From contig CAYXDV010000004.1 of NCBI GenBank assembly GCA_964463925.1, positions 13,080 to 77,079 of the forward strand: 64,000 nt of DNA, written 5' to 3'. The stretch is from an uncultured Gammaproteobacteria bacterium (GTDB taxonomy: Bacteria; Patescibacteriota; Microgenomatia; UBA12405). Under the pieces are notes generated by a model. The model was not told the DNA's origin. It did not search any database and worked only from the letters and a program-made list of their open reading frames with translations. Each line of letters opens with the position of its first letter. Position 1 is the stretch's first letter. Positions 10,359 to 54,544 of this stretch are shown here, piece by piece. The position numbers and the translations under genes are program-made.

Positions 10359-10359
10359 C

Positions 10360-12443: not shown

Positions 12444-12460
12444 CTTGCTATACTGTTTAT

Positions 12461-15700: not shown

Positions 15701-15724
15701 GCCGGGGCCTTCCAACTGATACAA

Positions 15725-15758: not shown

Positions 15759-15768
15759 TGTGTCTGTT

Positions 15769-16374: not shown

Positions 16375-16403
16375 ATTATTAATTATAAGTCATTTTGTTT
16401 AAT

Positions 16404-16423
16404 TTGTCAATCGCTGGTATACT
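16404..16423 (+). promoter_or_regulatory. Putative extended -10 promoter (TGgTATACT) giving a near-leaderless transcript for the downstream GT2 gene
   Basis: TGGTATACT at 16415-16423 lies only 6 nt before the ATG at 16430; TTGTCA lies upstream but with too short a spacer. Confidence 0.3.
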
Positions 16424-16429
16424 GTCTAC

Positions 16430-18552: not shown

Positions 18553-18553
18553 T

Positions 18554-32543: not shown

Positions 32544-34193
32544 TTGGTTATGTACAGATTTTTTCCAATATTTTTGTTTTTTTTGCTTTTATCATGTCTT
32601 GCGGGAAGCCAATTTTTCAGGGCTGGTTTTTTTGACACTCAGGATAACATGCATCCCCTGCGACTATTGCAGTATGAAGAATGTCAAAAGGACGGTCAGT
32701 TCCCTTGTCGTTATGTCCAGCAATTAGGATTGAACTGTGGATATCCTTTGTTTAATTTTTATCCGCCAGCAAGTTATGAATTTGCCCTAGGGATAAAAAC
32801 ACTTTTTTTAGGACACATAGGTTATCTCTCAACTATCAAAGCATATTATTTCCTTACGATCTTATTAGGGTCCGCTGGAATGTTTTTTCTATCAAAGTAT
32901 TTATCAAAGAACCAGTACACCGCACTCTTGGCTACTACCTTATATACTTTGGCTCCTTACAGATCAGTTAATATTTATGTTCGAGGTGCTTTTGCAGAAC
33001 ATTTTTTACTTAGCATAGTTCCCTGGTTAGTATTTTTCTTACTCTCCTGGTTAAAAAGTTTTATTCGCCGCCTGCTTTATATTTTAATTTTATGCTTATC
33101 AATCCTTTCTCACAGTCTATTTCCTATTCTTTTTGGACCAATTTTTATTACCATCCTAATTCATAAACTAATTGCTGACAAACAAAGCTGGTCAACAAAA
33201 GGAAAATTATTGCTAGATAGTTTTTTCAGTCTTTTACTATCCTCCTTTTTCTTACTACCAGCGCTATTAGAAAGAAAAAATACAACCAATTATTTGATGT
33301 CTACTGGATACTTTAACTTCATAAACCATTTTGTAACTTTTAAACAACTTTTTTTAAATACCTTTTGGGGTTATGGTCCCTCAACCTGGGGAAACCTAGA
33401 CGGAATGTCTTTTCAGATTGGCCCCATCCATCTATTGGCGATCTTATTTTGTCTTATTAGTTTTTTTATAAACAAATCAGTTAAGAAAAATTCACTCTTT
33501 GCAATCACGGGACTTTCTTTTTTTATTTTTTTAACCCACAATCGTTCAACATTTTTGTGGCAAATTGTGCCTTTTATTTCGTATGTTCAGTTTCCCTGGC
33601 GTTTTCTGGGTCCAATAATCTTTACAGTTGCAATCCTAGTTTCAATTAACATAAAGGATAAGCATGTTATTTTTTTTCTAATTCTATCTTGTGTAATATT
33701 TTATTCTAAACTCTTTTATTCAAATAACTGGAATCTATTCGAAACTGACCAGCTCAAGTTTTCTGGCAGCTATCTTTATGACCAGCAAGCAGCAGGATTG
33801 GGGGATTATTGGCCATCATATGGTAAAACCATGCCAAACGAAGCTTGCCAGAACATGCCAACTTTTACATCAGGAAAAGGCAACATTGAATTTTTTTCCA
33901 AAAAAACAAACCGTGTATCTGGAAAAGTTCTTTCCAATGGAAATTCAACTATCACCCTACCTCTAGTTTTCTTTCCAGGTTGGCAAATATCCCAAAATGG
34001 ATCAATTTTTACCAGTCCTAATTATGAACCAAAATACGGATTAATATCACTAAATTTACAACCAGGAGAGAATAACTTCACACTTACTTATGTTGGTACC
34101 AATGTTCAGCAGTTATCAAATCTCCTATCTCTTATCAGCCTCGGTTTAATGCTTTATTATTTGATAATCAGTCATGACCCAAAAAATAACTAA
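32544..34193 (+). CDS. Large polytopic membrane protein, putative GT-C/YfhO-like glycosyltransferase; paralog of 20804-22477
   Basis: 549 aa; conserved ...DNMHPLRLL...DGQFPCRYV...CGYPLFNFYPP block shared with 20804-22477. Confidence 0.5.
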   Translation: MVMYRFFPIFLFFLLLSCLAGSQFFRAGFFDTQDNMHPLRLLQYEECQKDGQFPCRYVQQLGLNCGYPLFNFYPPASYEFALGIKTLFLGHIGYLSTIKAYYFLTILLGSAGMFFLSKYLSKNQYTALLATTLYTLAPYRSVNIYVRGAFAEHFLLSIVPWLVFFLLSWLKSFIRRLLYILILCLSILSHSLFPILFGPIFITILIHKLIADKQSWSTKGKLLLDSFFSLLLSSFFLLPALLERKNTTNYLMSTGYFNFINHFVTFKQLFLNTFWGYGPSTWGNLDGMSFQIGPIHLLAILFCLISFFINKSVKKNSLFAITGLSFFIFLTHNRSTFLWQIVPFISYVQFPWRFLGPIIFTVAILVSINIKDKHVIFFLILSCVIFYSKLFYSNNWNLFETDQLKFSGSYLYDQQAAGLGDYWPSYGKTMPNEACQNMPTFTSGKGNIEFFSKKTNRVSGKVLSNGNSTITLPLVFFPGWQISQNGSIFTSPNYEPKYGLISLNLQPGENNFTLTYVGTNVQQLSNLLSLISLGLMLYYLIISHDPKNN

Positions 34194-35748
34194 ACTTCTA
34201 ATATTACTTCTAGTAGTCACACGAATTCTATTTCTAAACAGCTTTCCAATTTCTCTAAATTGGGATGAAGTTAGTCATGGTTATAATGCCTACAGCATTT
34301 TGCACACATCTTATGATCAGTGGGGCAAGAAACTGCCAATGTTCAATTTTCGTGCTTATGGTGATTACCCAACCACTTTAAACATGTACGCCTCCATTCC
34401 TTTTATTTCGATATTTGGACTAAATTCCTTTTCAATACGAATATTTTCAGCAATTATGGGAATTTTAATTGTTCTTTCAGTTTACAAACTATCTGACTTT
34501 CTCAAACTAAGACACAGAAATCTATTCTTCCTAATTTTGTTATTTTCCAACACACTCTTTTTTACCAGTCGTGGTGTTTTTCAGTCAACAGTTGCCTCGG
34601 GTCTTTATTTCCTGGGACTTTATCTGATTTTGTCAAAAAGTAAATATAATTGGTTTGGACTTTTAAGTCTAACATTTAGCCAATATGCTTATCACAATGC
34701 TCGTATTGTTACACCATTTGTTCTGATCTTCTTGTTTATTAAAGGAAAAGAGTATATTCAAAAAATTCCAATATTTGTAATCTTAATTTCCATAATTTTC
34801 AGTATCTTTTCCATAAACAATTTACTAACAAATAAAGATGCATCTGCTCGTAACAAATGGGTTTCAATTGTCGGCATTGAGGCAACAAATCAAATAATTG
34901 TTAATCGTCAGAATTTTTCAGGACCTCCGCAGCTGAATCGAATCCTAAACAACAAGCTGACATATGCAGTAAAAGCAATTTCGAAAAATTACCTATGGTA
35001 CATATCTCCGTATCCTTTATTCTTTCAAGGAACGGGGAACTATCAGTTTAATTTGCCGCACCTTGGACTTTGGCCAACCGTGGCTTTACCATTTTTCTAT
35101 TTTGGACTCTTTTTTGTTCTCAAAAATAGGAAAAAGTACCAATTCTTTCTATTTTTTATAATTATAGGGTTTTTACCGGCAGCCATTACCCAAGGTGATT
35201 TTCCTGTTCTCAGATTAAGTTTAGTCTTACCACTATATGCTGTCTTGATTTCAATGGGAGTCGAACAGGTTTCTAGGCGCATCTTTTGGATCGTTCCAAT
35301 ATTTGTTTTTGTATATTCAATACAATTTTTGCAGTTTGCAAGAGATTATTTCACAAATTACCCCTTTGCCTATGCCGATACTTGGCAATACGGCTACAAA
35401 CAAATCGTCGATATTTCTAAGGAAAATTATAGCCGATATTCAAATATCGTAGTTACAAAAAAATACGGTGAACCCCATGAGTTCTTTTTATTCTATTGGC
35501 CATGGAATCCAATACAATATCTGCTAGATCCTAAGAAAAAAACTGATATGCATTCAGATTGGTATTGGGTTGATTCTTTTGACAAATTTCACTTTGTAAA
35601 TGATTGGGATTTGCAAAAATACGTCCAAAATACACCAGGTAAAAAATTAGTTTTTTCCAGTCAAAACAATCTCTCTGGATCACTAATGGGTATAATAAGA
35701 TATCCAAACCAAGATCCAGTGTTCTATGTATACAACTATGAAAATTAA
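34174..35748 (+). CDS. PMT_2/ArnT-like GT-C glycosyltransferase, tandem paralog 1 of 3
   Basis: WDEVSHGYNAYSIL...FRAYGDYP...GLNSFSIRIFSAI; more than 10 TM helices. Confidence 0.65.
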   Translation: MTQKITKLLILLLVVTRILFLNSFPISLNWDEVSHGYNAYSILHTSYDQWGKKLPMFNFRAYGDYPTTLNMYASIPFISIFGLNSFSIRIFSAIMGILIVLSVYKLSDFLKLRHRNLFFLILLFSNTLFFTSRGVFQSTVASGLYFLGLYLILSKSKYNWFGLLSLTFSQYAYHNARIVTPFVLIFLFIKGKEYIQKIPIFVILISIIFSIFSINNLLTNKDASARNKWVSIVGIEATNQIIVNRQNFSGPPQLNRILNNKLTYAVKAISKNYLWYISPYPLFFQGTGNYQFNLPHLGLWPTVALPFFYFGLFFVLKNRKKYQFFLFFIIIGFLPAAITQGDFPVLRLSLVLPLYAVLISMGVEQVSRRIFWIVPIFVFVYSIQFLQFARDYFTNYPFAYADTWQYGYKQIVDISKENYSRYSNIVVTKKYGEPHEFFLFYWPWNPIQYLLDPKKKTDMHSDWYWVDSFDKFHFVNDWDLQKYVQNTPGKKLVFSSQNNLSGSLMGIIRYPNQDPVFYVYNYEN

Positions 35749-37297
35749 ATTGCTCCTTGTGCTTCTTTTTATCCTAGGAACTTTTTTTCGCCTTTACAGA
35801 TTGAGTTCATATCCACCACTACTATGGGATGAGGCAGCTCTTGGCTACAACAGCTATTCAATTCTAAAAACTGGGCGTGATGAATTTGGTCAAGTTTTAC
35901 CTCTAATTTTTAAATCATTTGGCGACTATAAGCCTGGCTTGTATATCTACCTGACCCTTCCTTTTGTAAAGCTTTTAGGACTCTCTGTTTTATCAGTCCG
36001 TCTACCTGGCGTGATCTTTGGGCTAATATCTTGCTATCTTTTATATCTAATATTAAGAAACTTTGGGAAAAATCTGGCTATCACCACCACAGCTATAGCT
36101 CTATTTTTCCCATGGAGTATTCATTTTAGTCGCGGTGCCTGGGAAAGCAATCTTGCCACTATGCTCTTATTGCTGTCCTTTTATCTCTATTCCCAAAACA
36201 AATATGTTCTTTCTAGTTTGATCCTTGGTCTTAATCTTTACGCATATCAATCATCAAAATTTTTTTGTCTTGTATTTTTATTATTTTTTATAATTTCAAA
36301 CTTTAAATCTAAAAATACTCTTGTAAAGTTAATCATTCCTGTTTTCCTATTATCTTTGCCATTATTGTTTGGTGTATTTTCAGGAAATGATGCCAATAGG
36401 TTAAAAATATTAAGTATTCTTAGCTACCCACAAACCAGCACAGAAATAGCCAAAGTTCAGAATCTAACTAGCCCTTTCTTGCAAAAAGTTTTTTTTAATA
36501 ATCATTTTTATTTTTTGCGAGAAATATCTAGACGTTATTTAAATAACTTCTCACCACAGTTTCTTTTTTGGCAAGGTGATTGGCAAAACCCAAGACATTC
36601 AGCCCCATATACAGGGCTTCTTTTGTGGCCACTAATTTGGCTATTGCCATTAGGGCTTCTAAAAGCATTGACGTGGCCAAGACGAAAAATAAGCCTATTT
36701 TTTCTACTCTGGCTTCTAACTGCTCCGCTGCCTGCAGCACTAACACGTGATGAGATACAGGCAAACAGAACATTGGGCTTGTTCTTACCCATAAGCTACT
36801 TCTCAGCAATGGGCTACATAAATTTAAAAAATAATTTCTACAAATACTCTACGATCCTTATTTTTCTTTTTAGTCTTGGATATTATCTCGATTTGTATCA
36901 CATACACATGGTACAGAAGTCTCCAGACCAATGGCTATCAGGATACCAAACGGCAGTAGATCTTGCTCAAAACCATAATTACAATCAGATCTATTTTACT
37001 GATTTCTATGGTCAACCATACATCTACTTTTTATTCTTTAGTCAATACAATCCGCTAATCTATCAGCAGAAAAACCATTTCACAGATAATAAAGCAGGGG
37101 ATGTAGGCTCAGTATCTACTTTAGATAATATTTCATTTGGCTCATTTAATTTTAACAATTTAAAGAGCAAACCAAACTCATTGATTGTTCTCTCAAGAGA
37201 CGAACTGTTAAGACAGGGACTCAATTTTAACCAATTCAAAGCCATAGCTCCAGAAAACGGAGTATCTAATTTCTATGCATATTCTACGCAGCCATAA
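35726..37297 (+). CDS. PMT_2/ArnT-like GT-C glycosyltransferase, tandem paralog 2 of 3
   Basis: WDEAALGYNSYSILKTGRDEFG...FKSFGDYKPG...GLSVLSVRLP. Confidence 0.65.
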   Translation: MYTTMKIKLLLVLLFILGTFFRLYRLSSYPPLLWDEAALGYNSYSILKTGRDEFGQVLPLIFKSFGDYKPGLYIYLTLPFVKLLGLSVLSVRLPGVIFGLISCYLLYLILRNFGKNLAITTTAIALFFPWSIHFSRGAWESNLATMLLLLSFYLYSQNKYVLSSLILGLNLYAYQSSKFFCLVFLLFFIISNFKSKNTLVKLIIPVFLLSLPLLFGVFSGNDANRLKILSILSYPQTSTEIAKVQNLTSPFLQKVFFNNHFYFLREISRRYLNNFSPQFLFWQGDWQNPRHSAPYTGLLLWPLIWLLPLGLLKALTWPRRKISLFFLLWLLTAPLPAALTRDEIQANRTLGLFLPISYFSAMGYINLKNNFYKYSTILIFLFSLGYYLDLYHIHMVQKSPDQWLSGYQTAVDLAQNHNYNQIYFTDFYGQPYIYFLFFSQYNPLIYQQKNHFTDNKAGDVGSVSTLDNISFGSFNFNNLKSKPNSLIVLSRDELLRQGLNFNQFKAIAPENGVSNFYAYSTQP

Positions 37298-38732
37298 ATT
37301 ATTATTTTTAATCTGTTTATTTGGCTTATTTCTCAGATCTTATCATCTCGATTCTTATCCTAGTTTAAATCCCGACGAAGCATCCCTGGGATACAATGCC
37401 TATTCGTTAATAAAAACAGGTAAAGATGAACATGGAACATCATGGCCTATTCATTTCAAATCATTTGGTGATTACAAGCCCGGTGGCTATGTTTATGTTC
37501 TATTACCCTTTATTAAATTTTTTGGACTCAATACTCTGTCAGTTAGATTGCCAAATCTTATAGCTTCGGTTTTGATTCTAGCCTTAGCTTACAAAATAGT
37601 TAACTTTCTATCAAAAAACACCTCTTTGTCGTTACTTACAACTTTTTTCTTATCTATATCTCCTTGGGCTATTCATTTTAGTCGTGGTGCTTGGGAAAGT
37701 AATTTTGCCTTTTTCTTAATTTTGGCAGCAACTTATTGTTTCCTTAAAAATCATTTAATTTTTTCAGCCCTCTTCTTCTCGGCTAGTCTTTACACCTATC
37801 ATTCTGCACGATTGTTTGTGCCACTCTTAATAATATTTCTAATAACCTCAAATATTGTAAATAGAAAAAAATTTGTGTCTAAGAAACATATAATTTTTTT
37901 ACTATCTATGGCTTTCTTTTCTCTACCGGTAGTTTTCTCCTTCCTAAACACAGGGGGCACATCTCGATTTGCGGGAGTGGGATTAGGAGCTGATCAAGGG
38001 CCTATATGGCGCGCAAATGAACTTATAAATGATCATCATACAACAAAACTAGCAGTTAGACTTTTGCACAACAAGCGAGTTTTATATTTACTCTCCTGGG
38101 CAGAAAAATACACCAGCCATTTCAATCTAAATTTTCTCTTCTTGAATGGCGATCAGGTACCTCGATCCAAAGTTCCAAATATGGGAGAGTCATATCTTAT
38201 TTTTTTACCTTTTTTTCTTTTTGGACTTCTTTCTTTGCTTAATAAAGAAACCCCACCCAAATTTAGAAATCTACTCATTTTTTGGTTGCTTGCGTCTCCG
38301 CTTGCTTCGTCGCTCACTTATCAGGCTCCATCAAGTTTGCGCTCTTTACCTGAGGTTTTTGCAGTTGAAGCCATCAGTGCTTTTGGGTTGTATCATTTTA
38401 TATATCATATAAAACAAAAAGCAAAACTATTATTATCTACATCCATAGTTTTTTGTTTACTGATTGTCTATTCAGTCGGATTTTATCTTGTAAATTACTA
38501 TCTACTTTATACATCAGAATATCCACAAGCTTGGCCATGGGGAGCAAAAGAAGCAATTGCCAAAAAAGATTATGATCAAATAAATGCGGACCAACCCTAT
38601 ATTATGTATTTGTTTTATACCGCTTACGATCCCCAAAAACTGCAAAAGCAGATTCAGCTCACTCCACCGGATCAATACGGTTTTTCAACCGTTAATAAAA
38701 TTGATAACATTACTTTTAGTAGTAAAAAATGA
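37275..38732 (+). CDS. PMT_2/ArnT-like GT-C glycosyltransferase, tandem paralog 3 of 3
   Basis: PDEASLGYNAYSLIKTGKDEHG...FKSFGDYKPG...GLNTLSVRLP. Confidence 0.65.
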   Translation: MHILRSHKLLFLICLFGLFLRSYHLDSYPSLNPDEASLGYNAYSLIKTGKDEHGTSWPIHFKSFGDYKPGGYVYVLLPFIKFFGLNTLSVRLPNLIASVLILALAYKIVNFLSKNTSLSLLTTFFLSISPWAIHFSRGAWESNFAFFLILAATYCFLKNHLIFSALFFSASLYTYHSARLFVPLLIIFLITSNIVNRKKFVSKKHIIFLLSMAFFSLPVVFSFLNTGGTSRFAGVGLGADQGPIWRANELINDHHTTKLAVRLLHNKRVLYLLSWAEKYTSHFNLNFLFLNGDQVPRSKVPNMGESYLIFLPFFLFGLLSLLNKETPPKFRNLLIFWLLASPLASSLTYQAPSSLRSLPEVFAVEAISAFGLYHFIYHIKQKAKLLLSTSIVFCLLIVYSVGFYLVNYYLLYTSEYPQAWPWGAKEAIAKKDYDQINADQPYIMYLFYTAYDPQKLQKQIQLTPPDQYGFSTVNKIDNITFSSKK

Positions 38733-39520
38733 AACCCAATAAAAAAATATTACTTTCAGTAGCCATTGCTACTTTTAATGAACAAGAATTCATCGGCAGA
38801 TGTCTCGATTCTGTCAAAAATTTGGCTGACGAAATAATTATTGTTGATGGCCAATCAACCGACAGGACAGTGTCTATTGTGGATAAATATCAAAACTCTA
38901 AAATAATTTCCACTAATAACAAGCCCATGTTTCACATTAACAAACAGCTTGCCTTGGATAATTGTTCTGGAAAATGGATATTGCAATTAGATGCCGACGA
39001 AGTCGTCTCACCTAGTCTGTCAAAAGAAATAAAATCAACAATACAACAAGATCATTCATATGATGGTTATTGGTTAAAAAGAGCTAACTACTTTCTTGGC
39101 AGGTTCTTAAAAAAGGGGGGGCAGTACCCAGATCCGACATTGCGACTATACAAAAATAAACTAGCCAGCTTTCCATGTAAAACTGTTCATGAACAAGTAA
39201 AACTAGAAGGAACAAGTGGATATCTAAACGCAGACCTTTTGCACTACGCGGATTATTCCTTTTCTCGTTACATCCTCAGACAAAATCGTTATACCACCGA
39301 GATGGCAACCCAACTTTTTGATCAAAAAAAGACTCCATCTTTTTTACTTTTCACAAAATATTTCTTTGTTTTTCCCACTTTCTGGTTTTTAAAAACATAT
39401 CTAAGACATAAAGGCTTTTTAGATGGCTTCCCAGGATTTGTTTTTAGTCTTTATTCAAGTCTTCGGTATCCAGCCGCCTATGTTAAGCTTTACGAACTTT
39501 ATAACCGTGAAAAAACATAA
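38729..39520 (+). CDS. GT2 glycosyltransferase (WaaE/KdtX-like subfamily)
   Basis: LSVAIATFNEQEFIGRCLDSV...DEIIIVDGQSTDRT...WILQLDADEVVSPSL. Confidence 0.75.
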   Translation: MKPNKKILLSVAIATFNEQEFIGRCLDSVKNLADEIIIVDGQSTDRTVSIVDKYQNSKIISTNNKPMFHINKQLALDNCSGKWILQLDADEVVSPSLSKEIKSTIQQDHSYDGYWLKRANYFLGRFLKKGGQYPDPTLRLYKNKLASFPCKTVHEQVKLEGTSGYLNADLLHYADYSFSRYILRQNRYTTEMATQLFDQKKTPSFLLFTKYFFVFPTFWFLKTYLRHKGFLDGFPGFVFSLYSSLRYPAAYVKLYELYNREKT

Positions 39521-40586
39521 AGTAGTTATAAACATAGCCGCTCTGCATACTCAAAGTTCAAATAGAGGTATTGGATTCTACACAAAAAGGCTAATAGATT
39601 CTTTACAAAAAGTTGTCAAAACTAACCCAACTTACAAGGATTTTCAAATAGATGTTTTCGATGGCAACGACCAGAAAATAATAAGCGATTGCAATCTGAT
39701 CCATTATCCTTATTTCGACATATTCCAAAAAACGCTAATTATAAATGACAAGCCAACTATTGTTACAGTGCACGATTTAATTCCACTTTCATTTCCAAAT
39801 CAGTATCCAGTCGGCATTCGCGGTCGAATCAATTGGATGCTGCAAAAAAAGGAGCTTACAAAAGCATCCTATATCATTACCGATTCAATTAGTTCCCGTT
39901 TTGAAATTACCAGGCATTTAAAGTTTCCGCAGGATCGTATTTTTAGTATATATCTAGCAGCTGATGGTGACTTTAAACCAATAGAAAAGAGAAAGGCCAG
40001 ACTACTAACAAAAAATCTAGGCTTGCCAGATAAATTTGTGCTATATGTTGGTGACGTAAATTGGAACAAAAATCTAGAAAGTCTGGCCAATGTTTGCATT
40101 TCTCTCAATTATCCGCTAATAGTCGTTGGCGCGGCAGCGGCAACTGCAATAGCACCCATTCACCCCTGGACCAAAAGTTTACAAAATTTTAAGCTACTGC
40201 AAGCAAAAAATGAAAATCTAGTCAAAACATTGGGCTATCTTCCAAATGATGTTTTAAATTCTCTCTACAATTTAGCAACTTTTTACTGCCAACCATCACG
40301 GGCCGAGGGTTTTGGTTTACCACTTGTTGAAGCTATGCAAGCTGGTTGCCCTGTGGTCTACTCACAGACTAGCAGTTTACCTGAAATCACAAACTATCTA
40401 GGCCTTTTTTTTGATCCTAATTCATTACAAGAAATGAAAAAGAGTTTTAAACAAATGTGGCATGATGACTCTTTACAAAAAAGGACAAGACAAGACGGTA
40501 TGCAAAGAGCAAAAATGTTTACTTGGGAATCTACCGCAATTCAGACCCTAGAAGTCTATCGATTAGCATTATTGGAAAATGCTTAA
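39480..40586 (+). CDS. GT4 (glycosyltransferase group 1) enzyme
   Basis: EGFGLPLVEAMQAGCPVVYSQTSSLPEI; start placed at the internal ATG (or GTG 39507) to limit overlap with the upstream gene. Confidence 0.8.
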   Translation: MLSFTNFITVKKHKVVINIAALHTQSSNRGIGFYTKRLIDSLQKVVKTNPTYKDFQIDVFDGNDQKIISDCNLIHYPYFDIFQKTLIINDKPTIVTVHDLIPLSFPNQYPVGIRGRINWMLQKKELTKASYIITDSISSRFEITRHLKFPQDRIFSIYLAADGDFKPIEKRKARLLTKNLGLPDKFVLYVGDVNWNKNLESLANVCISLNYPLIVVGAAAATAIAPIHPWTKSLQNFKLLQAKNENLVKTLGYLPNDVLNSLYNLATFYCQPSRAEGFGLPLVEAMQAGCPVVYSQTSSLPEITNYLGLFFDPNSLQEMKKSFKQMWHDDSLQKRTRQDGMQRAKMFTWESTAIQTLEVYRLALLENA

Positions 40587-41319
40587 CTCTAAACATTTTT
40601 TATCTGTTGTTGTTCCAGTATATAAACAAGAAAAAACAATAAAACAAGATCTGTTAAACATCATAAAAACACTAAATCAAATACGGTATGCCTACGAGGT
40701 GATTGTAGTTGTAGATGGTACTTCTATCGATCATTCTTACAATAAAGCTAAAACTTTAAAAAATAAAAACTTAAAAGTTTTTGGATACTCCAAAAATAAA
40801 GGCAAAGGATATGCTGTTCGATTTGGCATGAGAAAAAGTCGTGGAGACTATGTTGCCTTTTTAGATTCAGGTATGGAAATAGATCCAAATGGAGTTTCTA
40901 TGCTGATTGAGCACTTAGAATGGTACAGGGCAGACATTGTTGTTGCAAGTAAACGACATCCAGCATCACAAGTTTCTTATCCACCCACTCGTCGTTTAAT
41001 AAGTTTTGGAGCTCAAATTTTTGCTAGAGTATTTTTGGGCCTAAAAGTTCGCGATACCCAAGCAGGTCTTAAGATCTTCAAAAGACAAGTACTTGAAAAG
41101 GTTTTGCCTAAACTATTGGTCAAACGCTATGCTTTTGATTTAGAAATGCTTGCAGTAGCTTCACATCTTGGATATTCCAGGATTTACGAGTCACCAATCC
41201 GTTTAAAATACAACTTCCAGGATCTCACCCATGCTTCAGATTTAATCACTATCTACAATTCTCTGATAGATGCTATGGCAGTGGTATATCGTTTAAGAAT
41301 AAAAAAATTCTATGACTAA
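40579..41319 (+). CDS. GT2 glycosyltransferase (DPM1-like)
   Basis: LSVVVPVYKQEKTIKQDL...VIVVVDGTSIDHS...FLDSGMEIDP. Confidence 0.8.
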   Translation: MLNSKHFLSVVVPVYKQEKTIKQDLLNIIKTLNQIRYAYEVIVVVDGTSIDHSYNKAKTLKNKNLKVFGYSKNKGKGYAVRFGMRKSRGDYVAFLDSGMEIDPNGVSMLIEHLEWYRADIVVASKRHPASQVSYPPTRRLISFGAQIFARVFLGLKVRDTQAGLKIFKRQVLEKVLPKLLVKRYAFDLEMLAVASHLGYSRIYESPIRLKYNFQDLTHASDLITIYNSLIDAMAVVYRLRIKKFYD

Positions 41320-42271
41320 AATTCTCTTTTTTTCGGTAATCATACCTGTGAGAAAAGAAACAACGTATTTGAAACAGAATTTAGCTATTTTAAAAAAAAT
41401 ACCCAACCTTGAAGTCATCGTGGTTACCGATAAATTAAGCCATTCTCCAAATCCTGCATTTAAAAGAAATCTAGGAGCCAAAAAGGCAAAAGGGGATATC
41501 CTAGTATTTTTAGATGACGATTCATATCCAACAAAATCATACTTCGTCAAAGCTGCTAAGATATTCTCAAACCAAGAAATTCAAGCCGCCTGTGGTCCAC
41601 AGCTGACACCGCCAGATGACAATGCAGAACAACAAGCTTCGGGACTCATTCTGGCTTCCATTTTAGGAAGTGGCGGCGCGGGAACCTATCGCAACACCGT
41701 ATCATCTGCACGTTTTTTAGATGATTATCCATCTGTAAATCTGCTTGTTAGAAAAAAAACATTTTGGAAAGTTAATGGATTTGACACTTCCCATTGGCCA
41801 GGTGAAGATACTCTCTTTTGCCGACAGTTAAACCTTGTTGCAAATACAAAATTATTTTATTCACCAGAACTAGTTGTTTATCACCATCGTCGACCCATTG
41901 GAATCTCATTCTTAAAACAACATAGTCGTTATGGACAACATCGAGGTTATTTTGCAAAAAAATATCCAGAAAATAGTGCAAAGATTGGTTATTTTATACC
42001 AACACTTTTTACATTTTATCTCGTATCTTTAATATTTTTTCACCCAAGTTTTTATTTTCTTCCTGCCCTTCTCTATATTACTTTGTTAATTGCTCAGTTC
42101 TTGAACTTTATCTACTTGAAAAACTCTGTAAAAATCAGTCTGTTGGCAATTATGTTTATTCCTCTAACACATATTGTTTATGGGTTCTTTTTTGTTTTCG
42201 GACTATTGAAATCAGATCTAAAGTTTCAGCCACACCAAACAAAGCCAAATGGAAACTATTTAGGTGGCTAA
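41312..42271 (+). CDS. GT2 glycosyltransferase with a C-terminal 4-TM domain
   Basis: FSVIIPVRKE...FLDDDSYP...; C-terminal hydrophobic block. Confidence 0.75.
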   Translation: MTKILFFSVIIPVRKETTYLKQNLAILKKIPNLEVIVVTDKLSHSPNPAFKRNLGAKKAKGDILVFLDDDSYPTKSYFVKAAKIFSNQEIQAACGPQLTPPDDNAEQQASGLILASILGSGGAGTYRNTVSSARFLDDYPSVNLLVRKKTFWKVNGFDTSHWPGEDTLFCRQLNLVANTKLFYSPELVVYHHRRPIGISFLKQHSRYGQHRGYFAKKYPENSAKIGYFIPTLFTFYLVSLIFFHPSFYFLPALLYITLLIAQFLNFIYLKNSVKISLLAIMFIPLTHIVYGFFFVFGLLKSDLKFQPHQTKPNGNYLGG

Positions 42272-42289: not shown

Positions 42290-43795
42290 ATGACTAAAGG
42301 TAAAAAACTATCAATTAGTATTAGCTACCCACCTCTAGAAACCAACAAAGGTACTGCATTTTTGTCACAAAACAGACAGTTCCAATGGACAAATACAGGC
42401 AATGTAATATACCCAGTTATCCCAGCTTATGCTGCTTCTCTCTTAAAAGAAAACGGATATCATGTCTTTTGGGATGACGCCATTGCAGAAAAATTAACCA
42501 AAGACCAATGGCTTCAGCGTTTATTAGACAACAAACCAGACGTTATTGCAATTGAATCTAAAACACCTACGATCAAGGGGTATTGGCGGCTTATTGATGA
42601 AATAAGACAATATCAAACAAAATCTTGGCAGCCAACAATCATATTGTATGGAGATCATTTAACTGCCCTACCAGAAGAGTCCCTAAACAATAGTTCAGTT
42701 GATATTGTCTTAACTGGTGGAGACTATGACTTTATGTTGTTAAACCTTTGCAATCATTTATCAACCGGCTCGGATTTAGAGCCTGGCTTTTACTACAAGG
42801 ATGACAGCGGAAAAATAAAAAATACTGGACCATATGCCCTAAAACATCACAATTTAGATTCTTTACCTTTTATTGATAGAGATCTTACTCGCTGGGAGCT
42901 TTATGCTTATCACAATGGTAACTACAAATACACTCCTGCCACATATCTGATGACTGGACGTGATTGCTGGTGGGGTAAATGTACCTTTTGTTCTTGGACC
43001 ACCATCTTTCCCGGTAAAGGATATCGTTTTTTTAGCCCCAAAAGAACCCTATCTGAGGTAAAGCATCTAGTAGAAAATTATGGGATCAGAGAGATCTTTG
43101 ATGATGCTGGAACTCTTACACCAGGCGCCTGGATACACGAATTCACAGCAGGATTAATAACTTCAGGCTTGCATAAAAAAGTAAGATATGGAGCCAATAT
43201 GCGCTTTAATGCTGTTGGGGAAAAAGAATATGCAGCTATGGGCCGGGCAAATTTCCGCTTCATGCTTTATGGACTAGAATCTAGTAATCAAAAAACCCTG
43301 GATATGCTCGAAAAGGGCACAAAAACAGAAGATGCCAGAAAATCCTTGTCTTTGGCCAAAAAGTACGGAATGGAACCACATTTGACAATTATGATCGGCT
43401 ATCCTTGGGAAACCAGACAAGATGCCCTAAATACTTTAGAAGAAGCAAGGCGCTTGTTTCGCGATTGTCTTGCAGATTCCATGCAGGCCACTATCGTGAT
43501 CCCTTATCCTGGAACACCTCTCTTCAAACAATGCCAAGAAAACGGATGGCTTTTAACAACCGACTGGGATGACTATGATATGCGTCAAGCTATCATGAAA
43601 TGCCCAATGGATACTCAAGAATTGAATATCTTGGTTCAAAGCCTATTTAAAGGTGTGCTTACTCCTAACTTTTTATTTAAAAAAATTGCTTCTATTCGCA
43701 ACCCAGATGATGTAAAGCACCTAGCAAGTTATGCTTACAAATTCGTAAAAAAACTTTCAGATTTCCCAGTTGGACATGTTAATCCAAGTCGCTAA
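42290..43795 (+). CDS. B12-binding-domain radical SAM enzyme
   Basis: N-terminal Rossmann-like B12-binding region (DVIAIESKTP); radical SAM cluster cysteines GRDCWWGKCTFCSW, a non-canonical Cx4Cx2C spacing; about 500 aa, typical of class B radical SAM enzymes. Confidence 0.75.
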   Translation: MTKGKKLSISISYPPLETNKGTAFLSQNRQFQWTNTGNVIYPVIPAYAASLLKENGYHVFWDDAIAEKLTKDQWLQRLLDNKPDVIAIESKTPTIKGYWRLIDEIRQYQTKSWQPTIILYGDHLTALPEESLNNSSVDIVLTGGDYDFMLLNLCNHLSTGSDLEPGFYYKDDSGKIKNTGPYALKHHNLDSLPFIDRDLTRWELYAYHNGNYKYTPATYLMTGRDCWWGKCTFCSWTTIFPGKGYRFFSPKRTLSEVKHLVENYGIREIFDDAGTLTPGAWIHEFTAGLITSGLHKKVRYGANMRFNAVGEKEYAAMGRANFRFMLYGLESSNQKTLDMLEKGTKTEDARKSLSLAKKYGMEPHLTIMIGYPWETRQDALNTLEEARRLFRDCLADSMQATIVIPYPGTPLFKQCQENGWLLTTDWDDYDMRQAIMKCPMDTQELNILVQSLFKGVLTPNFLFKKIASIRNPDDVKHLASYAYKFVKKLSDFPVGHVNPSR

Positions 43796-44777
43796 AAAAC
43801 TACCACTTGTATCTGTTGTTATTGCCACCAGAAATTCTGACAAAACTTTATATGATTGTTTATCTAGTCTCAAAAAACAATCATATACAAATTACGAATT
43901 ACTCATACTAGACGCAAACTCTATTGATTCAACCCTGAAAATCGCTAAAAGTTTTGACGGAAAGATATATACAAACCCTCTGAAAACTGCTGAGGCTGGG
44001 AAGGCTCTTGGTCTTAAAAAAGCCAAAGGGGAATACATATTATTGCTAGATTCAGACAACATGCTGACTAGCCAAAATTATTTAGAAGACTCAATCAACT
44101 TGCTTTTAGCTAACAATAAGATTGTTGGCGTAGAACCATGGGCCTTCACTTATAGGAACAAATCTGGATACATTGAACGCTATTGCGCACTTATTGGGGC
44201 CAATGATCCCTATGCCTGGTTTACTAAACATTTAGACAAAATAAATTACCTAGACCACTCTTGGCCACATCCAGAATTGGTTATTAAAGACAAAAAAAAT
44301 TTTTTATTACTAAAACTAACTCATAAAAAAACTATTCCTACTATTGGCGCCAATGGAACAATATTTAAAACTGATTTTCTTAATAAATATCAACAAGGAG
44401 ACTATCTTTTTGATATTGATATTTTAAACAGGGCGATACAAAATCATTCTGTTGTTTTTGCCAAAATAAAACAGGGGATAATCCATACTTATTGCGAGTC
44501 ATCATTGACTAAGTTTATTAAAAAACAGTCACGGAGAATTAGTGACTTTTATATCTATCAACCTCTAAGAAAAACCAATTGGGAGACTAGCCCTAGCTCT
44601 AGCAATAATTTACTATTTCTACTTTATAGCTTTACTCTTGCTGGACCACTTTTAACCGCTCTAAAAGGTTATTTGAATAAACCAGATTTTGCCTGGTTTT
44701 TTCACCCGATAGCCTGTATTGTAACCTCCACAATTTATATTTATTTTTCACTAAAACATGAGATTTTTAAAAGTTAG
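43770..44777 (+). CDS. GT2 glycosyltransferase
   Basis: LVSVVIATRNSDKTLYDCLSSLKKQSY...LLILDANSIDST...LLDSDNML. Confidence 0.75.
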   Translation: MDMLIQVAKKLPLVSVVIATRNSDKTLYDCLSSLKKQSYTNYELLILDANSIDSTLKIAKSFDGKIYTNPLKTAEAGKALGLKKAKGEYILLLDSDNMLTSQNYLEDSINLLLANNKIVGVEPWAFTYRNKSGYIERYCALIGANDPYAWFTKHLDKINYLDHSWPHPELVIKDKKNFLLLKLTHKKTIPTIGANGTIFKTDFLNKYQQGDYLFDIDILNRAIQNHSVVFAKIKQGIIHTYCESSLTKFIKKQSRRISDFYIYQPLRKTNWETSPSSSNNLLFLLYSFTLAGPLLTALKGYLNKPDFAWFFHPIACIVTSTIYIYFSLKHEIFKS

Positions 44778-48236: not shown

Positions 48237-50019
48237 AACTCAATTGTATTCTTGCTTGGTTAAAGTTGGGATCAATTTGCAATGCTTTCGTAAATGCCTT
48301 CTTTGCCTCTTCACTCTTTCCTATCTGTTTATACAAAACACCAAAAATATAATGGACTAGGGGATTATTTGGTTGATATTTCAAAAGAGTATTGCCATAA
48401 GAAAAAGCCTCCTCTACTTTGTTTTCTGACATAGCAACTTGAATAAGTGCAACATAACTTTGATACAAGCCTGGATTATATTTTAAGGCAGTCAGATAAC
48501 TATCTCGTGCCAAGTCCAATCTGTTTATCTTAAAAAAGATGTTGGCTCGATTATGATAAGCATCTGCATAATCATTTTTTACAACAGTAGATTGGGTAAA
48601 GCCTTTAACTGCATTTTCATACTGTTTTAATTTATCGTAATCATCTCCAATATTATTCCAGGCATTATGAGAATTCGGAGAAACCTGACAAGTATTAACC
48701 CACAGATTATGATTAGTCTGCCAATTAATATTTCGCAAAAAAATTCTGTAACCAAAAAAAGATATCAGAATAGCTGTTAGCAACCACTTAAATAAATTTA
48801 GCTTTTCAGAAAAATTTTCAAGCATCAGGGCTAAAACAATAGCGATACCCAATCCTCCTAAAAACATATATCTCTCGGCCACCATCCAGCTAACTTTTAA
48901 CGGGGTCATTGATCCGGCAGAAACAATAAAAACAAAGGCCATTGCAAAAGCCAAATTTATATTACCCCTTAGATAAAAGTAAAAGGTTGTCAAAACATAC
49001 AAAACTAAAACTAACCAATTTAGCCAATTCGGAATAACCTGAAGCATTGTGTGATATAAAGTCAAGTCAATAGGGAAAAGAATGAGTTGTAAATATTTTG
49101 TAACAGACGTTGGATATTGAAACCATGGTTCATAAAATTTATCCCAGACACCACCACCGCTAGCGGCAACAACACTCAATCTTGTCATAATCATCGGCAA
49201 AAATATCAATACGCCAACTGCCAACACAGAAAGAATTGTAGTAACCACCTTTATCAGTTCACTTTTACTTTTAGCACCAAAACAAAGCCAGTATAGTAGA
49301 AAAAGTAGCAGTACAACTAAACCTCTCGGACCAAAACAAAAACATGCAAAAACCACCGAAGCCACAAGAATAGTCATATTAACAAGATTTCTTTTTTTAA
49401 ACCATTTTAAAAATGCCAAAAAACTAGCCAAAAAGGATATTGCCCCTAGCAAATATGGTTTACCCGAAATCCAAGTAACAGCTTCTACATTAATCGGCAA
49501 GAAAGCAAAAATTAGGGTTGCCGTAAAAGCTAGCTTTTCGTTGTAAATTTTAGTAACTACAATAAACGCCAAAAGTAAAACCAACTCAAACAAAAACAGA
49601 TTAGTCAGATGGAAAGGGATAGGGTTATTTTTTCCAAAAACTGCAGCAACAAAAAAATTCACCACAGCTGAACCAGTGAAAGTAACTCCGGGATCTGAAA
49701 AATAAGCAGTCGAAAGTATTGTTTGACTGTTTATGATAGTAGCATAGTCGTCAGACACAAAATCAGCTTTAATCCCATTAAAATATACAATAAGCGACAA
49801 AGCACAAATTAATAACAGCTGCTTCCAGTTGCCAGATATCACTTTGGCTATTGAGTCATTTTTTGGAAAAGTCGAATCAATAGGCTCAAAAACAGATTTA
49901 AACTTTGCCGCACGTCTTTCTTTTTTACTCAAACCCATGTAGCTAGTATAATCAAAACAATGCTGCTTATCATCAACGAAATAAAACTTCTGTTTAAATA
50001 TCACGAATTGCTCCTGCAA
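48226..50019 (-). CDS. TMTC-like membrane protein: N-terminal polytopic PMT_2/DUF1736-type domain plus C-terminal TPR repeats (true start possibly 49938)
   Basis: About 10 TM helices, followed by WNNIGDDYDKLKQYENAVKGF...AYHNRANIFFKINRLDLARDSYLTALKYNP...YIFGVLYKQIGKSEEAKKAFTKALQIDP, which are TPR units. Confidence 0.7.
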   Translation of the reverse strand: MQEQFVIFKQKFYFVDDKQHCFDYTSYMGLSKKERRAAKFKSVFEPIDSTFPKNDSIAKVISGNWKQLLLICALSLIVYFNGIKADFVSDDYATIINSQTILSTAYFSDPGVTFTGSAVVNFFVAAVFGKNNPIPFHLTNLFLFELVLLLAFIVVTKIYNEKLAFTATLIFAFLPINVEAVTWISGKPYLLGAISFLASFLAFLKWFKKRNLVNMTILVASVVFACFCFGPRGLVVLLLFLLYWLCFGAKSKSELIKVVTTILSVLAVGVLIFLPMIMTRLSVVAASGGGVWDKFYEPWFQYPTSVTKYLQLILFPIDLTLYHTMLQVIPNWLNWLVLVLYVLTTFYFYLRGNINLAFAMAFVFIVSAGSMTPLKVSWMVAERYMFLGGLGIAIVLALMLENFSEKLNLFKWLLTAILISFFGYRIFLRNINWQTNHNLWVNTCQVSPNSHNAWNNIGDDYDKLKQYENAVKGFTQSTVVKNDYADAYHNRANIFFKINRLDLARDSYLTALKYNPGLYQSYVALIQVAMSENKVEEAFSYGNTLLKYQPNNPLVHYIFGVLYKQIGKSEEAKKAFTKALQIDPNFNQARIQLSSTT

Positions 50020-50760
50020 TTGGCTGGCAGAGAAATAAAATCACGATACAAACAATCAATTCTTGGCTATTTTTGGGTAATTATCCAGCCATTATCCCAA
50101 TTGTTAGTCATGACTTTTGCCTTTTCAGTAATTTTAAAAGTTCAAACATTTGCAACAGGTAGCATTCCCTACATAATATTTCTTTCTGTTGCCCTTCTTC
50201 CTTGGAATTTATTTGTAAATAGCCTCAATTCTGCTTCCGGATCACTGGTAGCAAACGCAGGTTTAATTTCCAAAACATACCTTCCAAAATCAGTTTTTAT
50301 ATTGGCAACTTTAATCGCCAAACTAGTTGATTTCGGATTCTCACTTTTAGTTCTTATTCTATTTTTTATTTGGTACCAGCTTCCAGTACTATCTAGCTTT
50401 TTATGGATTGTACCAATTTTTTTACTTCAAAATATTTTCACTTTAGGACTCTCATATTTCTTAGCAACAGCAAATCTAATTTACAGAGATATTCAATATC
50501 TGTTGTCGCTAATATTGATGCTTTGGATGTACTTTACCCCAATTTTTTATTCAATCGACAACATCCCGCTTAAATTTCGGTTTATTTTTCAATTAAACCC
50601 AATGTCAGTAATTGTTAATGCCTATCGTCAAGTAATTCTTGCTGGCGGAAGTCCAAACTATAGTAGTTTGTTACTATGTACCATAGTTTCTTTTTTGACT
50701 TTATATCTTGGCGTTAAATCATTTAAATCCGCAGAACCAACTCTAGCTGACCATGTCTAA
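49960..50760 (+). CDS. ABC-2 type polysaccharide/teichoic-acid exporter permease (Wzm/TagG-like)
   Basis: REIKSRYKQSILGYFWVIIQPL N-terminal motif; 6 TM helices; translationally coupled to the downstream ATPase. Confidence 0.75.
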   Translation: MLLIINEIKLLFKYHELLLQLAGREIKSRYKQSILGYFWVIIQPLSQLLVMTFAFSVILKVQTFATGSIPYIIFLSVALLPWNLFVNSLNSASGSLVANAGLISKTYLPKSVFILATLIAKLVDFGFSLLVLILFFIWYQLPVLSSFLWIVPIFLLQNIFTLGLSYFLATANLIYRDIQYLLSLILMLWMYFTPIFYSIDNIPLKFRFIFQLNPMSVIVNAYRQVILAGGSPNYSSLLLCTIVSFLTLYLGVKSFKSAEPTLADHV

Positions 50761-51439
50761 TCAAAACAATGTACCACCTACCGTAATAAAATTTGAACAT
50801 GTAACTAAAGTTTTTAGCCTTCAAAAACAAAAAACTTTCAAAGAATTCCTCCCAGCTCTTGCTTCTGGCAAAGATACAAAGACAACTTTTACTGCCCTAA
50901 ATAATATCAGTTTTGAAATTAAAAAAGGAGAATGTGTCGGTATCGTTGGGCCAAACGGTTCAGGTAAATCAACAATTCTAAAAATAATTGCTGGAGTTAC
51001 CGCACCCACTTCTGGATCAGTTTTTGTCAATGGAAAAGTATCGCCTTTAATCGAATTGGGTTCAGGAATGCATCCAGAGCTTTCCGGACGGGAAAATGTT
51101 TTTTTAAATGGGGCCATTTTGGGACTTAGTCAAAAGCAAATCCATGATAGATTTAAAGAAATTGTTGATTTTGCCGAACTATGGGACTTTATTGATGAAC
51201 CAATCAAGCATTATAGTAGTGGAATGTTCATGCGACTAGCATTCTCTGTTGCCATTCATGTTGACCCCGAGATATTGTTAATTGACGAGATTTTGGCTGT
51301 AGGTGATGCCGCCTTTCAGGACAAATGCTTCAAGAAAATGGAAGAGTTTAAAAAACAAGGCATAACCATGCTATTGGTATCACATAATACAAAACAAATT
51401 GCAGATTACTGCGATAGAAGTCTATCCTTCGATAGGTAG
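50753..51439 (+). CDS. ABC exporter ATP-binding protein (Wzt/TagH/KpsT-like), short form without a C-terminal carbohydrate-binding domain
   Basis: Walker A GPNGSGKST, signature YSSGMFMRLAFSVA, Walker B LLIDEILAVGD; only 228 aa. Confidence 0.85.
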   Translation: MSNQNNVPPTVIKFEHVTKVFSLQKQKTFKEFLPALASGKDTKTTFTALNNISFEIKKGECVGIVGPNGSGKSTILKIIAGVTAPTSGSVFVNGKVSPLIELGSGMHPELSGRENVFLNGAILGLSQKQIHDRFKEIVDFAELWDFIDEPIKHYSSGMFMRLAFSVAIHVDPEILLIDEILAVGDAAFQDKCFKKMEEFKKQGITMLLVSHNTKQIADYCDRSLSFDR

Positions 51440-54400: not shown

Positions 54401-54544
54401 GTATTTGTTCATCATTTTGGAAGCATGTCATTCAAACAACTTAATAAAGAAAAATACCAAAATTTATTTAACGACAATAAAAGAAAGTTTGAAACCAAAT
54501 GGAAAATTAAATGGAAAAAACATGTGAATAGAAATATTAATTAA
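51449..54544 (+). CDS. Multidomain glycan assembly protein: N-terminal SAM methyltransferase, coiled coil, GT4 domain and C-terminal GT2 domain
   Basis: 1031 aa; MT motif I AEFGSGSGHIS; coiled coil about residues 265-340 (NLKNDLEDLKIKNQQKDKCLENLKGDIDMANLKISQLSVALNKIY); GT4 region (GYYGAIAEWFD...VFEYLAAGKPIVAS); GT2 region (VSIVVLSYNKPEML...VVDNASNKET...LNNDVI). Confidence 0.8.
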   Translation: MKIKKQTIDKPNPKIWDLVSKKYTFKITDSDLEIGSFLLDFLGKNKKAKKQTIAEFGSGSGHISAVLAQKKFNTTLVDFSTEALKKSKLLYSKLNLSGNFINADILNFHKNTSYDLVWNSGVMEHFNDKMLLKAFEEIYKHTNSYFIFIVPNPKSIPYLLWRSKLICEKEWDFGYEYLRDNYEEFIEHSGFLLQKKTYIGKNISSWQLTQTTNEQSLKDFYKEMYQEDIITPENYYLTVYVCKKNNNFTSKDAKFILDEDTTRKTNLFLEIVNHSNLKEKTNAVDNLKNDLEDLKIKNQQKDKCLENLKGDIDMANLKISQLSVALNKIYNSKTWRLLYLYKKFAEKSKNCLKLLIPIKTRKAIVSSVELVKLTRTIKNKIPEIVISDWQDHLKSQYSKQIVDYIIFSVIAWDFRYQRPQQLSKFLAQKNEGTRVFYIKNEFLVSPSAKASPSIRVEKKESMVYEITLSASKNLFIYSDTPTMKDKQTIFESLKTLIYEAGIINPIAVIDHPFWANLLESYGMPVIYDCMDNHQGFLENDKRLAVLEQELFTKSDIVLTTSKYLSNMAKKAGSKSVSLLPNAGDYKHFAKALNPKNFTRPADLPRNKNPIVGYYGAIAEWFDTEILSDVAQKNKDKTIVLIGSVTNKKVVDLTKINKNIYLLGEKPYSELPAYLAHFDVCIIPFKLTELIKATHPVKVFEYLAAGKPIVASRMPEISNLHKVVTFASKKDFSEQINFLLKSGNQKSKKDRQKLALKNTWIERADKLTNLVMKKFFPKVSIVVLSYNKPEMLKKTLDSIIQRSYYSNLEVIVVDNASNKETISLLENYKTNPIVKVIYNKQNYGFAKGNNIGLKVSTGDYIVVLNNDVIITPGWISRLIFHLSKNKKTAIVGPVTNNIGNEAKIDITYDAENASELEKKSREYTSKHWNQSLGVNNLAAFCWIFSRKTYKEYGGFDERYGMGLFEDDDYCYMIKKAGLNLKISDDVFVHHFGSMSFKQLNKEKYQNLFNDNKRKFETKWKIKWKKHVNRNIN

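Follow-up and report, generated by a model that had tools for sequence, protein, structure and literature searches.

The window analysed here, a stretch of 64,000 nucleotides (64 kb) from the genome of a Patescibacterium, carries at 42290..43795 on the + strand a gene for a radical S-adenosylmethionine (SAM) enzyme. The gene starts with ATG and encodes a protein of 501 amino acids in an open reading frame (ORF) without frameshifts. Patescibacteria are abundant, mostly uncultured bacteria of tiny genome size, and hardly anything is known about their surface chemistry. An earlier note on this DNA had placed the gene between genes for family 2 glycosyltransferases (GT2) and had suggested that its product, a B12-binding radical SAM enzyme with unusually spaced cysteines, modifies a surface sugar, e.g. 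by C-methylation. Both flanking genes are indeed GT2 genes according to Pfam, and this arrangement is conserved over 46 related loci, each with at least 6 kb on either side, that we compared for synteny. The gene belongs to a four-gene module that is conserved across Patescibacteria; the class B enzyme type and the Cx4Cx2C spacing of the cysteines were already known.

The four-gene module

The conserved module consists of a Dpm1/GtrB-like GT2, a membrane GT2, the radical SAM enzyme and another membrane GT2, all encoded on the + strand of the window. The gene at 40579..41319 codes for a soluble GT2 (GT2_246), which resembles polyprenyl-phosphate glycosyltransferases of the Dpm1/GtrB/ArnC/PpgS/AglJ type, as judged from Pfam, NCBIfam, the PDB and synteny, and which has a homolog in 43 of the 46 loci (median identity 64%). 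Its matches in the PDB are DPMS from P. furiosus (5mlz, 1e-13) as well as GtrB and ArnC, and the NCBIfam matches PpgS, AglJ and ArnC all stay under the cut-off. Polyprenyl-phosphate glycosyltransferases make the lipid-linked monosaccharide donors that are used by GT-C enzymes. The second gene, at 41312..42271 and directly upstream of the radical SAM gene, encodes a GT2 (Pfam) with at least three C-terminal hydrophobic segments. A homolog is found in 43/46 loci, normally also directly upstream, and in Methanocaldococcus indicus. Directly downstream, overlapping the radical SAM gene by 26 nt, follows a GT2 (GT2_335) with a C-terminal hydrophobic segment at 43770..44777, which was assigned by Pfam and synteny and has a homolog, normally adjacent, in 40 of the 46 loci.

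Conservation of the radical SAM enzyme is unusually high for a Patescibacterial protein. Within the Shapirobacteria-like clade its genomic orthologs have 58-66% identity to the query, and in an alignment of 58 Patescibacterial sequences, from which both the column identities and the invariant positions given below were taken, column identity averages 68%. The gene is under strong purifying constraint. As this strong conservation is coupled to the same three glycosyltransferases, the enzyme probably produces a core sugar of the envelope, and one of unusual chemistry.

The module is also present in the complete genome of M. indicus SL43 (chromosome NZ_CP186926.1, 1153223-1174671; locus L070, genes at 8348-8992, 9017-9997, 10001-11464 and 11922-12941), the ortholog (WP_423792393.1) having about 50-51% identity and a Cx7Cx2C motif. 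All three types of partner GT2 are located near the radical SAM gene, i.e. a membrane GT2 upstream, another GT2 downstream, which is 41% identical to its counterpart in the window, and a Dpm1-like GT2 on the opposite strand, ~6 kb downstream. The region adjoins an insertion sequence (IS) transposase of the IS240 type, located directly upstream, and a gene for a UDP-glucose dehydrogenase lies nearby. This setting suggests that the module has been passed laterally between Patescibacteria and archaea.

Cysteine motif and loop length

The presumed cluster-binding motif C226-WWGK-C231-TF-C234 is encoded at 42965..42991 (+) and is defined by direct reading of the DNA, by conservation in homologs and by alignments. 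Positions 42950..43000 translate to MTGRD-C226-WWGK-C231-TF-C234-SWT, with the Cys codons TGC, TGT and TGT at 42965-67, 42980-82 and 42989-91, respectively. Thus, the triad has the spacing Cx4Cx2C, one residue longer than the canonical Cx3Cx2C, just as the earlier note had described it. C226, C231 and C234 are invariant, as are W227, W228 and W236, and in alignments the motif superposes exactly on the cluster motifs of HpnJ, BchE and OxsB. The residues of the SAM-binding motifs are invariant as well, namely F270, D271, D272, G274 and T275 in FDDAGT (GGE-type), G328, E330 and S331 in YGLES (ribose motif), and G370, Y371, P372, W373 and E374 in IMIGYPWET (GxIxGxxE-type). The protein contains no hydrophobic segment and is therefore soluble, and a single Fe-S site is predicted in it. 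An auxiliary Fe-S cluster was considered and rejected: C415 is the one further Cys that does not vary among the Patescibacterial sequences, and it is missing from M. indicus. At residues 286 and 302 at least 90% of the family have Cys (C286, C302). As these are replaced by Thr and Ala in the window copy, they are dispensable and form no conserved auxiliary cluster. Judged by its sequence, the protein holds every feature of an active radical SAM enzyme.

The 120 best homologs in the database, with 58-90% identity, all keep the Cx4Cx2C spacing, in most cases as exactly GRDCWWGKCTFCSW, and so do 78 of 83 orthologs from GTDB species genomes. A sequencing error or a private insertion, either of which would leave the homologs with the canonical spacing, is ruled out by these numbers. 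Four of the remaining orthologs, including that of M. indicus SL43, have Cx7Cx2C (CWWRENGGC-SF-C). In the fifth (L064, 9923-11416) the motif reads CWWGKCTFW, i.e. the third Cys is replaced by Trp, whose codon TGG is one base off a Cys codon, so that the sequence is in error or this copy has been inactivated. The Cx7Cx2C-containing Megacluster-2-5 of RadicalSAM.org was considered as the same family and rejected, as it comprises ELP3/YhcC and is not B12-binding.

When 1.84 billion cluster representatives were searched exhaustively, relatives with Cx16 and Cx18 loops were found (P0213 and P0129), as well as a sister group with 33-38% identity that has Cx10 and Cx17, and a few members with Cx3. 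Altogether, the distance between the first two cysteines is X3, X4, X7, X10 or X16-18 in this family. Relatives under ~33% identity exclusively exhibit the canonical SRGCPxxCxFC, and the canonical motif is also found in bona fide HpnJ (from Paraburkholderia graminis), in BchE and in a homolog from a Lawsonia plasmid. A rough neighbour-joining tree, which carries no support values, places the expanded-loop group as derived within a canonical, HpnJ-like grade. As the nearest named relatives and all relatives up to ~33% identity are canonical, the loop expanded within this clade and is thus a trait of the clade rather than an error in the window copy. The spacing as such is precedented and not new, so that the novelty ascribed to it was overstated: OxsB holds its [4Fe-4S] cluster with Cx4Cx2C in the crystal structure (PMC9204698), GenD1 and Sis14 are reported to have the same spacing (PMC4340712), further non-canonical spacings have been catalogued across the radical SAM superfamily (PMC9477430), and the spacing varies even within the present family.

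Several relatives carry inteins within the Fe-S motif. In P0127, P0130, P0135, P0136 and P0155 the motif is split just before the third Cys (...CTF|C(F/V)P..T......(K/A)N|CSWT), a site that corresponds to the F233/C234 boundary in the window (nt 42988/42989), and in P0129 the intein sits before the first Cys (GRD|CFPAGT...VHN|CWWRR...), equivalent to C226 (nt 42964/42965); the motif of P0129 would be Cx18Cx2C once spliced. In all these relatives the ligand Cys doubles as +1 nucleophile. The six carriers were defined by their junction sequences, and Pfam was run on all of them except P0155. An Intein_splicing domain was detected in 5/5 of the scanned carriers, above the gathering score in P0127, P0135 and P0136, and a LAGLIDADG homing endonuclease domain in four of them, P0135 being the one without. 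The exact placement of the inteins at the first or the third Cys marks this site as essential. Five other, near-full-length relatives with 33-40% identity (P0134, P0140, P0152, P0158 and P0159) have lost all three cysteines, e.g. RDSDWGQSSLGSAA, and may possibly be non-catalytic paralogs that emerged from the expanded-loop clade.

Predicted fold, family and surrounding cluster

The protein is predicted to have class B architecture, i.e. a Rossmann domain of the B12-binding type followed by a radical SAM barrel. An AlphaFold2 model based on 58 homologs (predicted local distance difference test (pLDDT) 87.4, predicted template modelling score 0.89 for the whole model) exhibits a Rossmann unit of five strands and five helices (residues 8-159) and a (beta/alpha)6 barrel (residues 217-418), with pLDDT <50 for the Cys loop (residues 227-241). 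The Rossmann domain is encoded at 42311..42766 (+) and is further supported by PF02310, invariant residues and Foldseek. Its strands comprise residues 8-13, 58-63, 85-89, 116-120 and 139-141, with helices in between, and its conserved loops read PPL..KG.PFL.QNRQFQW, ESKTP, GDH and TGGDYDF. Thus, the B12-binding-like domain that the earlier note had recognised ahead of the triad is borne out by the model, although PF02310 scores only 26.8 bits in the window copy, under the gathering score of 32.1, while relatives exceed it with 34-40 bits. The radical SAM core, encoded at 42938..43543 (+), rests on the model, on invariant residues and on the alignment with HpnJ, and the Pfam profile Radical_SAM (PF04055) matches residues 224-385 with 45.5 bits, above its gathering score of 29.5.

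In a full-length Foldseek search against the PDB the top match is AprD4 (E 1.3e-17, TM 0.66-0.75), followed by MgmA/QCMT (9ccb; E 6e-17), OxsB (E 2e-16) and TsrM (E 1e-13), and Foldseek also aligns the protein to radical SAM barrels. By sequence the best PDB match is the methylase MgmA/QCMT (E 5.5e-10). The same two-domain layout has been described for OxsB, TsrM, TokK and QCMT in a 2026 review, which also lists AprD4 and homologs of ArsL as having related Rossmann domains without cobalamin (PMC12931638). Because such domains occur in AprD4 and the ArsL homologs without cobalamin, the fold alone is insufficient to conclude that cobalamin is used. For base-off/His-off binding of cobalamin a diagnostic sequence motif is not known. 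A scan of the whole 64-kb window with Rfam at the gathering threshold, with no separate scan for tRNAs, gave zero matches, cobalamin riboswitches included.

Among the NCBIfam models HpnJ (TIGR03471) matches best, with 145.9 bits over residues 40-486, followed by BchE (TIGR02026) with 98.2 bits over nearly the full length. The models that come after these remain at or below 65 bits, among them ApyD, MgmA (65 bits), a ladderane-type lipid enzyme, the lipid biosynthesis B12/radical SAM family TIGR04072 (62 bits), RiPP (ribosomally synthesised and post-translationally modified peptide) C-methyltransferases (60 bits), HpnR (57 bits) and PhpK (42 bits). The protein is not an ortholog of HpnJ, whose equivalog cut-off is 577.6 bits and whose hopanoid genes (hpnI, hpnK, shc) are not among the neighbours. 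Likewise, it is neither BchE (equivalog cut-off 481.35 bits) nor a diol-dehydratase of the AprD4 family (NF033070), for which only residues 296-438 match, with 33.2 bits as compared to an equivalog cut-off of 500. An HpnI/HpnJ pair was also rejected, as a comparison of the upstream GT2 with real HpnI gives only a generic GT-A match (E 0.005). Aligned pairwise, the protein and real HpnJ are 28% identical, the Cys loop showing a gap of a single residue. However, the HpnJ score climbs from 191 to 471 bits as the identity of the representatives to the query drops from 42% to 32%, HpnJ always being the top model. From this increase along less query-like representatives the family can be placed, on sequence grounds, within the HpnJ-like clade of the class B radical SAM enzymes, of which it forms a divergent branch.

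At 50% clustering the search yielded 487 representatives with E <= 1e-30 and 11,640 with E <= 1e-10. Public annotation of the homologs is generic ('radical SAM protein', 'B12-binding domain-containing radical SAM protein') or mis-assigned ('BchE', 'YgiQ'). A literature search for radical SAM enzymes of Patescibacteria or the Candidate Phyla Radiation in connection with glycosyltransferases, cobalamin or polyprenyl phosphate found nothing on this family. Thousands of radical SAM families exist to which no role has been assigned, and the present one is an uncharacterised subfamily of the class B type with a known type of motif variant. No fusions to glycosyltransferases were found among its long relatives, which consist of B12/radical SAM modules in tandem, one fusion to a methyltransferase and forms with inteins. 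Of the plasmid-borne relatives, the best one has 29% identity and the canonical motif and is encoded on plasmid 1 of Lawsonia intracellularis (NC_008012.1, locus L005, 7962-9425) amid genes for GT2s, GalE, a SIS-domain isomerase, a HAD-IIIA phosphatase, a GHMP kinase, a second radical SAM enzyme and five class I methyltransferases, i.e. it is an HpnJ-like enzyme in a sugar (heptose-type) rather than a hopanoid pathway.

In the window the radical SAM gene is part of a glycan-biosynthesis array of ~37 kb (roughly 17-54.5 kb), which comprises GT2, GT4 and PMT-like GT-C genes, a Wzx-like flippase, an acetyltransferase, class I methyltransferases and a Wzm/Wzt ATP-binding cassette (ABC) exporter. 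Directly preceding the module, at 38729..40586 (+), are a GT2 (263 amino acids) and a GT4 (387 amino acids) gene, assigned by Pfam and synteny. This pair is found in 28/28 loci of the Shapirobacteria-like clade (at least 56% identity) and in 6/18 loci elsewhere, and the PMT-like genes further upstream are likewise fixed in that clade only. The latter belong to four tandem genes for membrane proteins of ~485-549 amino acids at 32544..38732 (+), two of which match PMT/PMT_2 (GT-C) in Pfam; the other two have no Pfam match, yet have syntenic homologs in other loci. PMT-like GT-Cs presumably use polyprenyl-phosphate-sugar donors. More GT-C-like or PTPS_related membrane proteins are encoded upstream at 17137-18552 and 19299-22477, and the set of polyprenyl-phosphate-sugar-dependent transferases is unusually large for a small genome.

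At the other end of the array a single ORF of 1031 amino acids (51449-54544) combines a class I SAM methyltransferase, a GT4 and a GT2 domain. It directly follows the genes for the Wzm/Wzt exporter (49960-51439) and recalls those enzymes of ABC-transporter-dependent O-antigen pathways that terminate the chain or are bifunctional. No second class B radical SAM gene was found in the 64-kb window. In related genomes one to three additional class B paralogs (22-31% identity, all with canonical Cx3Cx2C) are located within 10 kb in the same glycan cluster, e.g. at 14571-16112, 16014-17594 and 19496-20944 in L036, at 17612-19099 and 19108-20670 in L014, and at 17605-19092 and 19139-20584 in L066. Over the whole window (1-64000) the GC content is 30-40% throughout and the GC skew is persistently negative.

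Proposed role and comparison with known systems

By analogy to the systems discussed below, the most likely role of the enzyme would be the radical modification of a lipid-linked sugar. As a whole, an active radical SAM enzyme of class B architecture that belongs to the HpnJ-like branch and modifies such a sugar is the best explanation we can offer, although we propose it tentatively. In this scheme a [4Fe-4S] cluster bound to C226, C231 and C234 would cleave SAM reductively, and the 5'-deoxyadenosyl radical would take a hydrogen from a sugar that has just been put on a membrane lipid, i.e. polyprenyl phosphate or another lipid acceptor, by one of the partner GT2s. The modified lipid-linked sugar would then be elongated, flipped and moved to the cell surface. 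In favour of a lipid-linked sugar as substrate we count the three co-conserved GT2s, the recurrence of the module in M. indicus, the resemblance of GT2_246 to DPMS, GtrB and ArnC, and the GT-C genes next to the module, while OxsB shows that a loop of this length is compatible with cluster binding. Polyprenyl-phosphate sugars are modified prior to GT-C transfer in the ArnC/ArnD/ArnT and DprE1/E2 pathways, to which we draw a further analogy besides that to HpnJ and calditol synthase. As outcome of the radical step we would cautiously favour a non-methylating rearrangement of the HpnJ type, such as ring contraction or formation of a carbocycle, which we place only slightly ahead of cobalamin-dependent C-methylation. 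For HpnJ, acting on bacteriohopanetetrol (BHT)-glucosamine, and the calditol synthase Cds, acting on glycosyl-glycerol dialkyl glycerol tetraether (glycosyl-GDGT), knockouts alone have led to the proposal that a hexose bound to a lipid is contracted to a cyclopentitol (PMC9204698, PMC13459092, PMC9092360). That the module makes a rearranged lipid-linked sugar of precisely this kind, e.g. a ring-contracted carbocyclic cyclitol as in the HpnJ and calditol pathways, which a GT-C would place on the surface, is a far more specific proposal and, in our estimation, quite unlikely.

Several points speak against the assignment to HpnJ-like sugar chemistry. The support for HpnJ itself comes only from a knockout, and our reading of the family is drawn by analogy. 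The HpnJ score is just a quarter of the family cut-off, hopanoid genes are not among the neighbours and the GT2 next to the gene does not resemble HpnI. Confidence of the model is low in the Cys loop, the window contains neither a cobalamin riboswitch nor another Rfam element, the binding of cobalamin is putative, and the substrate was deduced solely from synteny. Moreover, the class B enzymes characterised so far are mostly methylases (PMC9204698, PMC13598231), and the C-methylases MoeK5, which acts on a sugar, and Fom3, which acts on a phosphonate, co-cluster with HpnJ in published similarity networks (PMC9204698).

The last two points at the same time argue for the rival that we consider possible but doubtful, i.e. 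cobalamin-dependent C-methylation of an unactivated sugar carbon in the surface glycan or in a lipid-linked precursor, as carried out by GenK, GenD1 and MoeK5 on antibiotic sugars. This would agree with the class B architecture, with the Cx4Cx2C motif that the sugar C-methylase GenD1 shares (PMC4340712) and with MgmA/QCMT, a methylase, being the best PDB match by sequence. However, the models for methylases (MgmA 65, RiPP C-methyltransferase 60, HpnR 57 and PhpK 42 bits) score well below HpnJ (146 bits) and BchE (98 bits), three of the five top curated matches (HpnJ, BchE and the ladderane enzyme) are non-methylases, class I SAM methyltransferases are already available in the cluster, and the reaction needs cobalamin, whose binding by this protein is putative. 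Of the earlier suggestion, an unusual sugar modification is also the most likely role in our reading, whereas the C-methyl sugar is one of several live options and not the best supported one; it draws on the prior for class B enzymes rather than on specific support, given that the best curated matches are the non-methylating HpnJ and BchE and that no methylase model exceeds 65 bits.

An enzyme that is independent of cobalamin and whose Rossmann domain is merely structural, as in AprD4, might instead catalyse 1,2-diol dehydration (deoxygenation), epimerisation or oxidation of a sugar. To our knowledge Patescibacteria are generally unable to make cobalamin, which we count in favour of this alternative, as we do the sub-threshold PF02310 score of the window copy and the first rank in Foldseek of AprD4, which binds no cobalamin (PMC12931638). 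Yet this first rank may reflect only the best match in length and domain content, the match by sequence is weak and confined to residues 296-438, relatives exceed the PF02310 threshold, and few parts of the protein are as highly conserved as the loops atop the Rossmann strands, which would be unexpected for a purely structural domain, so that we regard this alternative as unlikely. Very unlikely, in our view, is a modification of the lipid carrier or of a membrane lipid, i.e. of an isoprenoid or acyl chain, as by HpnP, HpnR, the ladderane enzyme and tetraether-modifying radical SAM enzymes: TIGR04072 and HpnR do appear among the curated matches and the partner proteins are membrane-anchored, but these scores lie under that of HpnJ, which acts on a sugar head group, and the conserved partners are all glycosyltransferases, with no lipid-synthesis gene conserved alongside. 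Finally, the Cys-less relatives and the Trp-containing ortholog L064 might hint at a decayed, non-catalytic copy or an assembly artefact. This is hardly conceivable for the window copy, as 120/120 close homologs and 78/83 orthologs, drawn from independent assemblies, share the motif, none of the SAM-binding motifs varies, the ORF is free of frameshifts, and OxsB shows that the spacing is functional (PMC9204698).

If the module does produce a lipid-linked sugar of the HpnJ/Cds type, this would be the first such chemistry outside the head groups of hopanoids and tetraethers, and the product would mark the envelope of Patescibacteria as a signature component, shared through lateral transfer with some archaea, e.g. 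M. indicus. As M. indicus SL43 is a completely sequenced, named strain, which presumably is in culture, it may offer an experimental route to the module. In addition, the family provides a natural series of loops of 3, 4, 7, 10 and 16-18 residues between the first two cysteines in otherwise homologous enzymes, which may be useful for studying effects of loop length on the cluster and, if present, on the cobalamin site.

Among the known systems, BchE, the anaerobic Mg-protoporphyrin IX monomethyl ester cyclase, resembles the window protein as second-best curated match over nearly the full length, and it is a non-methylating class B enzyme (PMC13598231). It differs in its canonical motif and its porphyrin substrate, and no photosynthesis genes are found near the window gene. 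AprD4 (PDB 6FD2), a 1,2-diol dehydratase that acts on paromamine, is the best structural match, with similar length, the same two-domain layout and a sugar substrate, but it binds no cobalamin (PMC12931638) and its sequence match is weak and partial (33 bits compared to 500). GenD1, GenK and MoeK5, which were compared by description only, are class B enzymes that act on unactivated sugar carbons, GenD1 with Cx4Cx2C (PMC4340712); they belong to secondary-metabolite clusters of actinomycetes, whereas the window gene is part of a cell-envelope glycan module.

OxsB (PDB 5UL2-5UL4), a cobalamin-dependent radical SAM enzyme that contracts a ring in the synthesis of oxetanocin A, shares the Cx4Cx2C motif without a gap (CDYSRCTFC as compared to CWWGKCTFC) as well as the Rossmann and radical SAM fold (Foldseek E 2e-16), and it also acts on a sugar ring (PMC9204698). 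However, it is very distant in sequence (E 0.003 with a single sequence, 2e-5 with a profile), comprises 744 amino acids with extra N- and C-terminal domains, and uses a nucleotide substrate and a partner, OxsA. Because closer relatives of the window protein are canonical, the spacing shared with OxsB is probably convergent. Patescibacteria are not known to make hopanoids, no hopanoid genes were found near the window gene, and its neighbouring GT2 is not HpnI; in these respects, and in the canonical CRSKCTFC of HpnJ as opposed to Cx4Cx2C, the window protein differs from HpnJ. Nevertheless, HpnJ, which is proposed to turn BHT-glucosamine into a cyclitol ether by contraction of the glucosamine ring, is the best curated match over the full length, with 28% identity, the same domain order and 473 as compared to 501 amino acids. 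Both proteins share a long conserved loop after the first strand and an aromatic residue two positions past the third Cys, and both genes adjoin a gene for a membrane GT2, which in the case of real hpnJ is hpnI.

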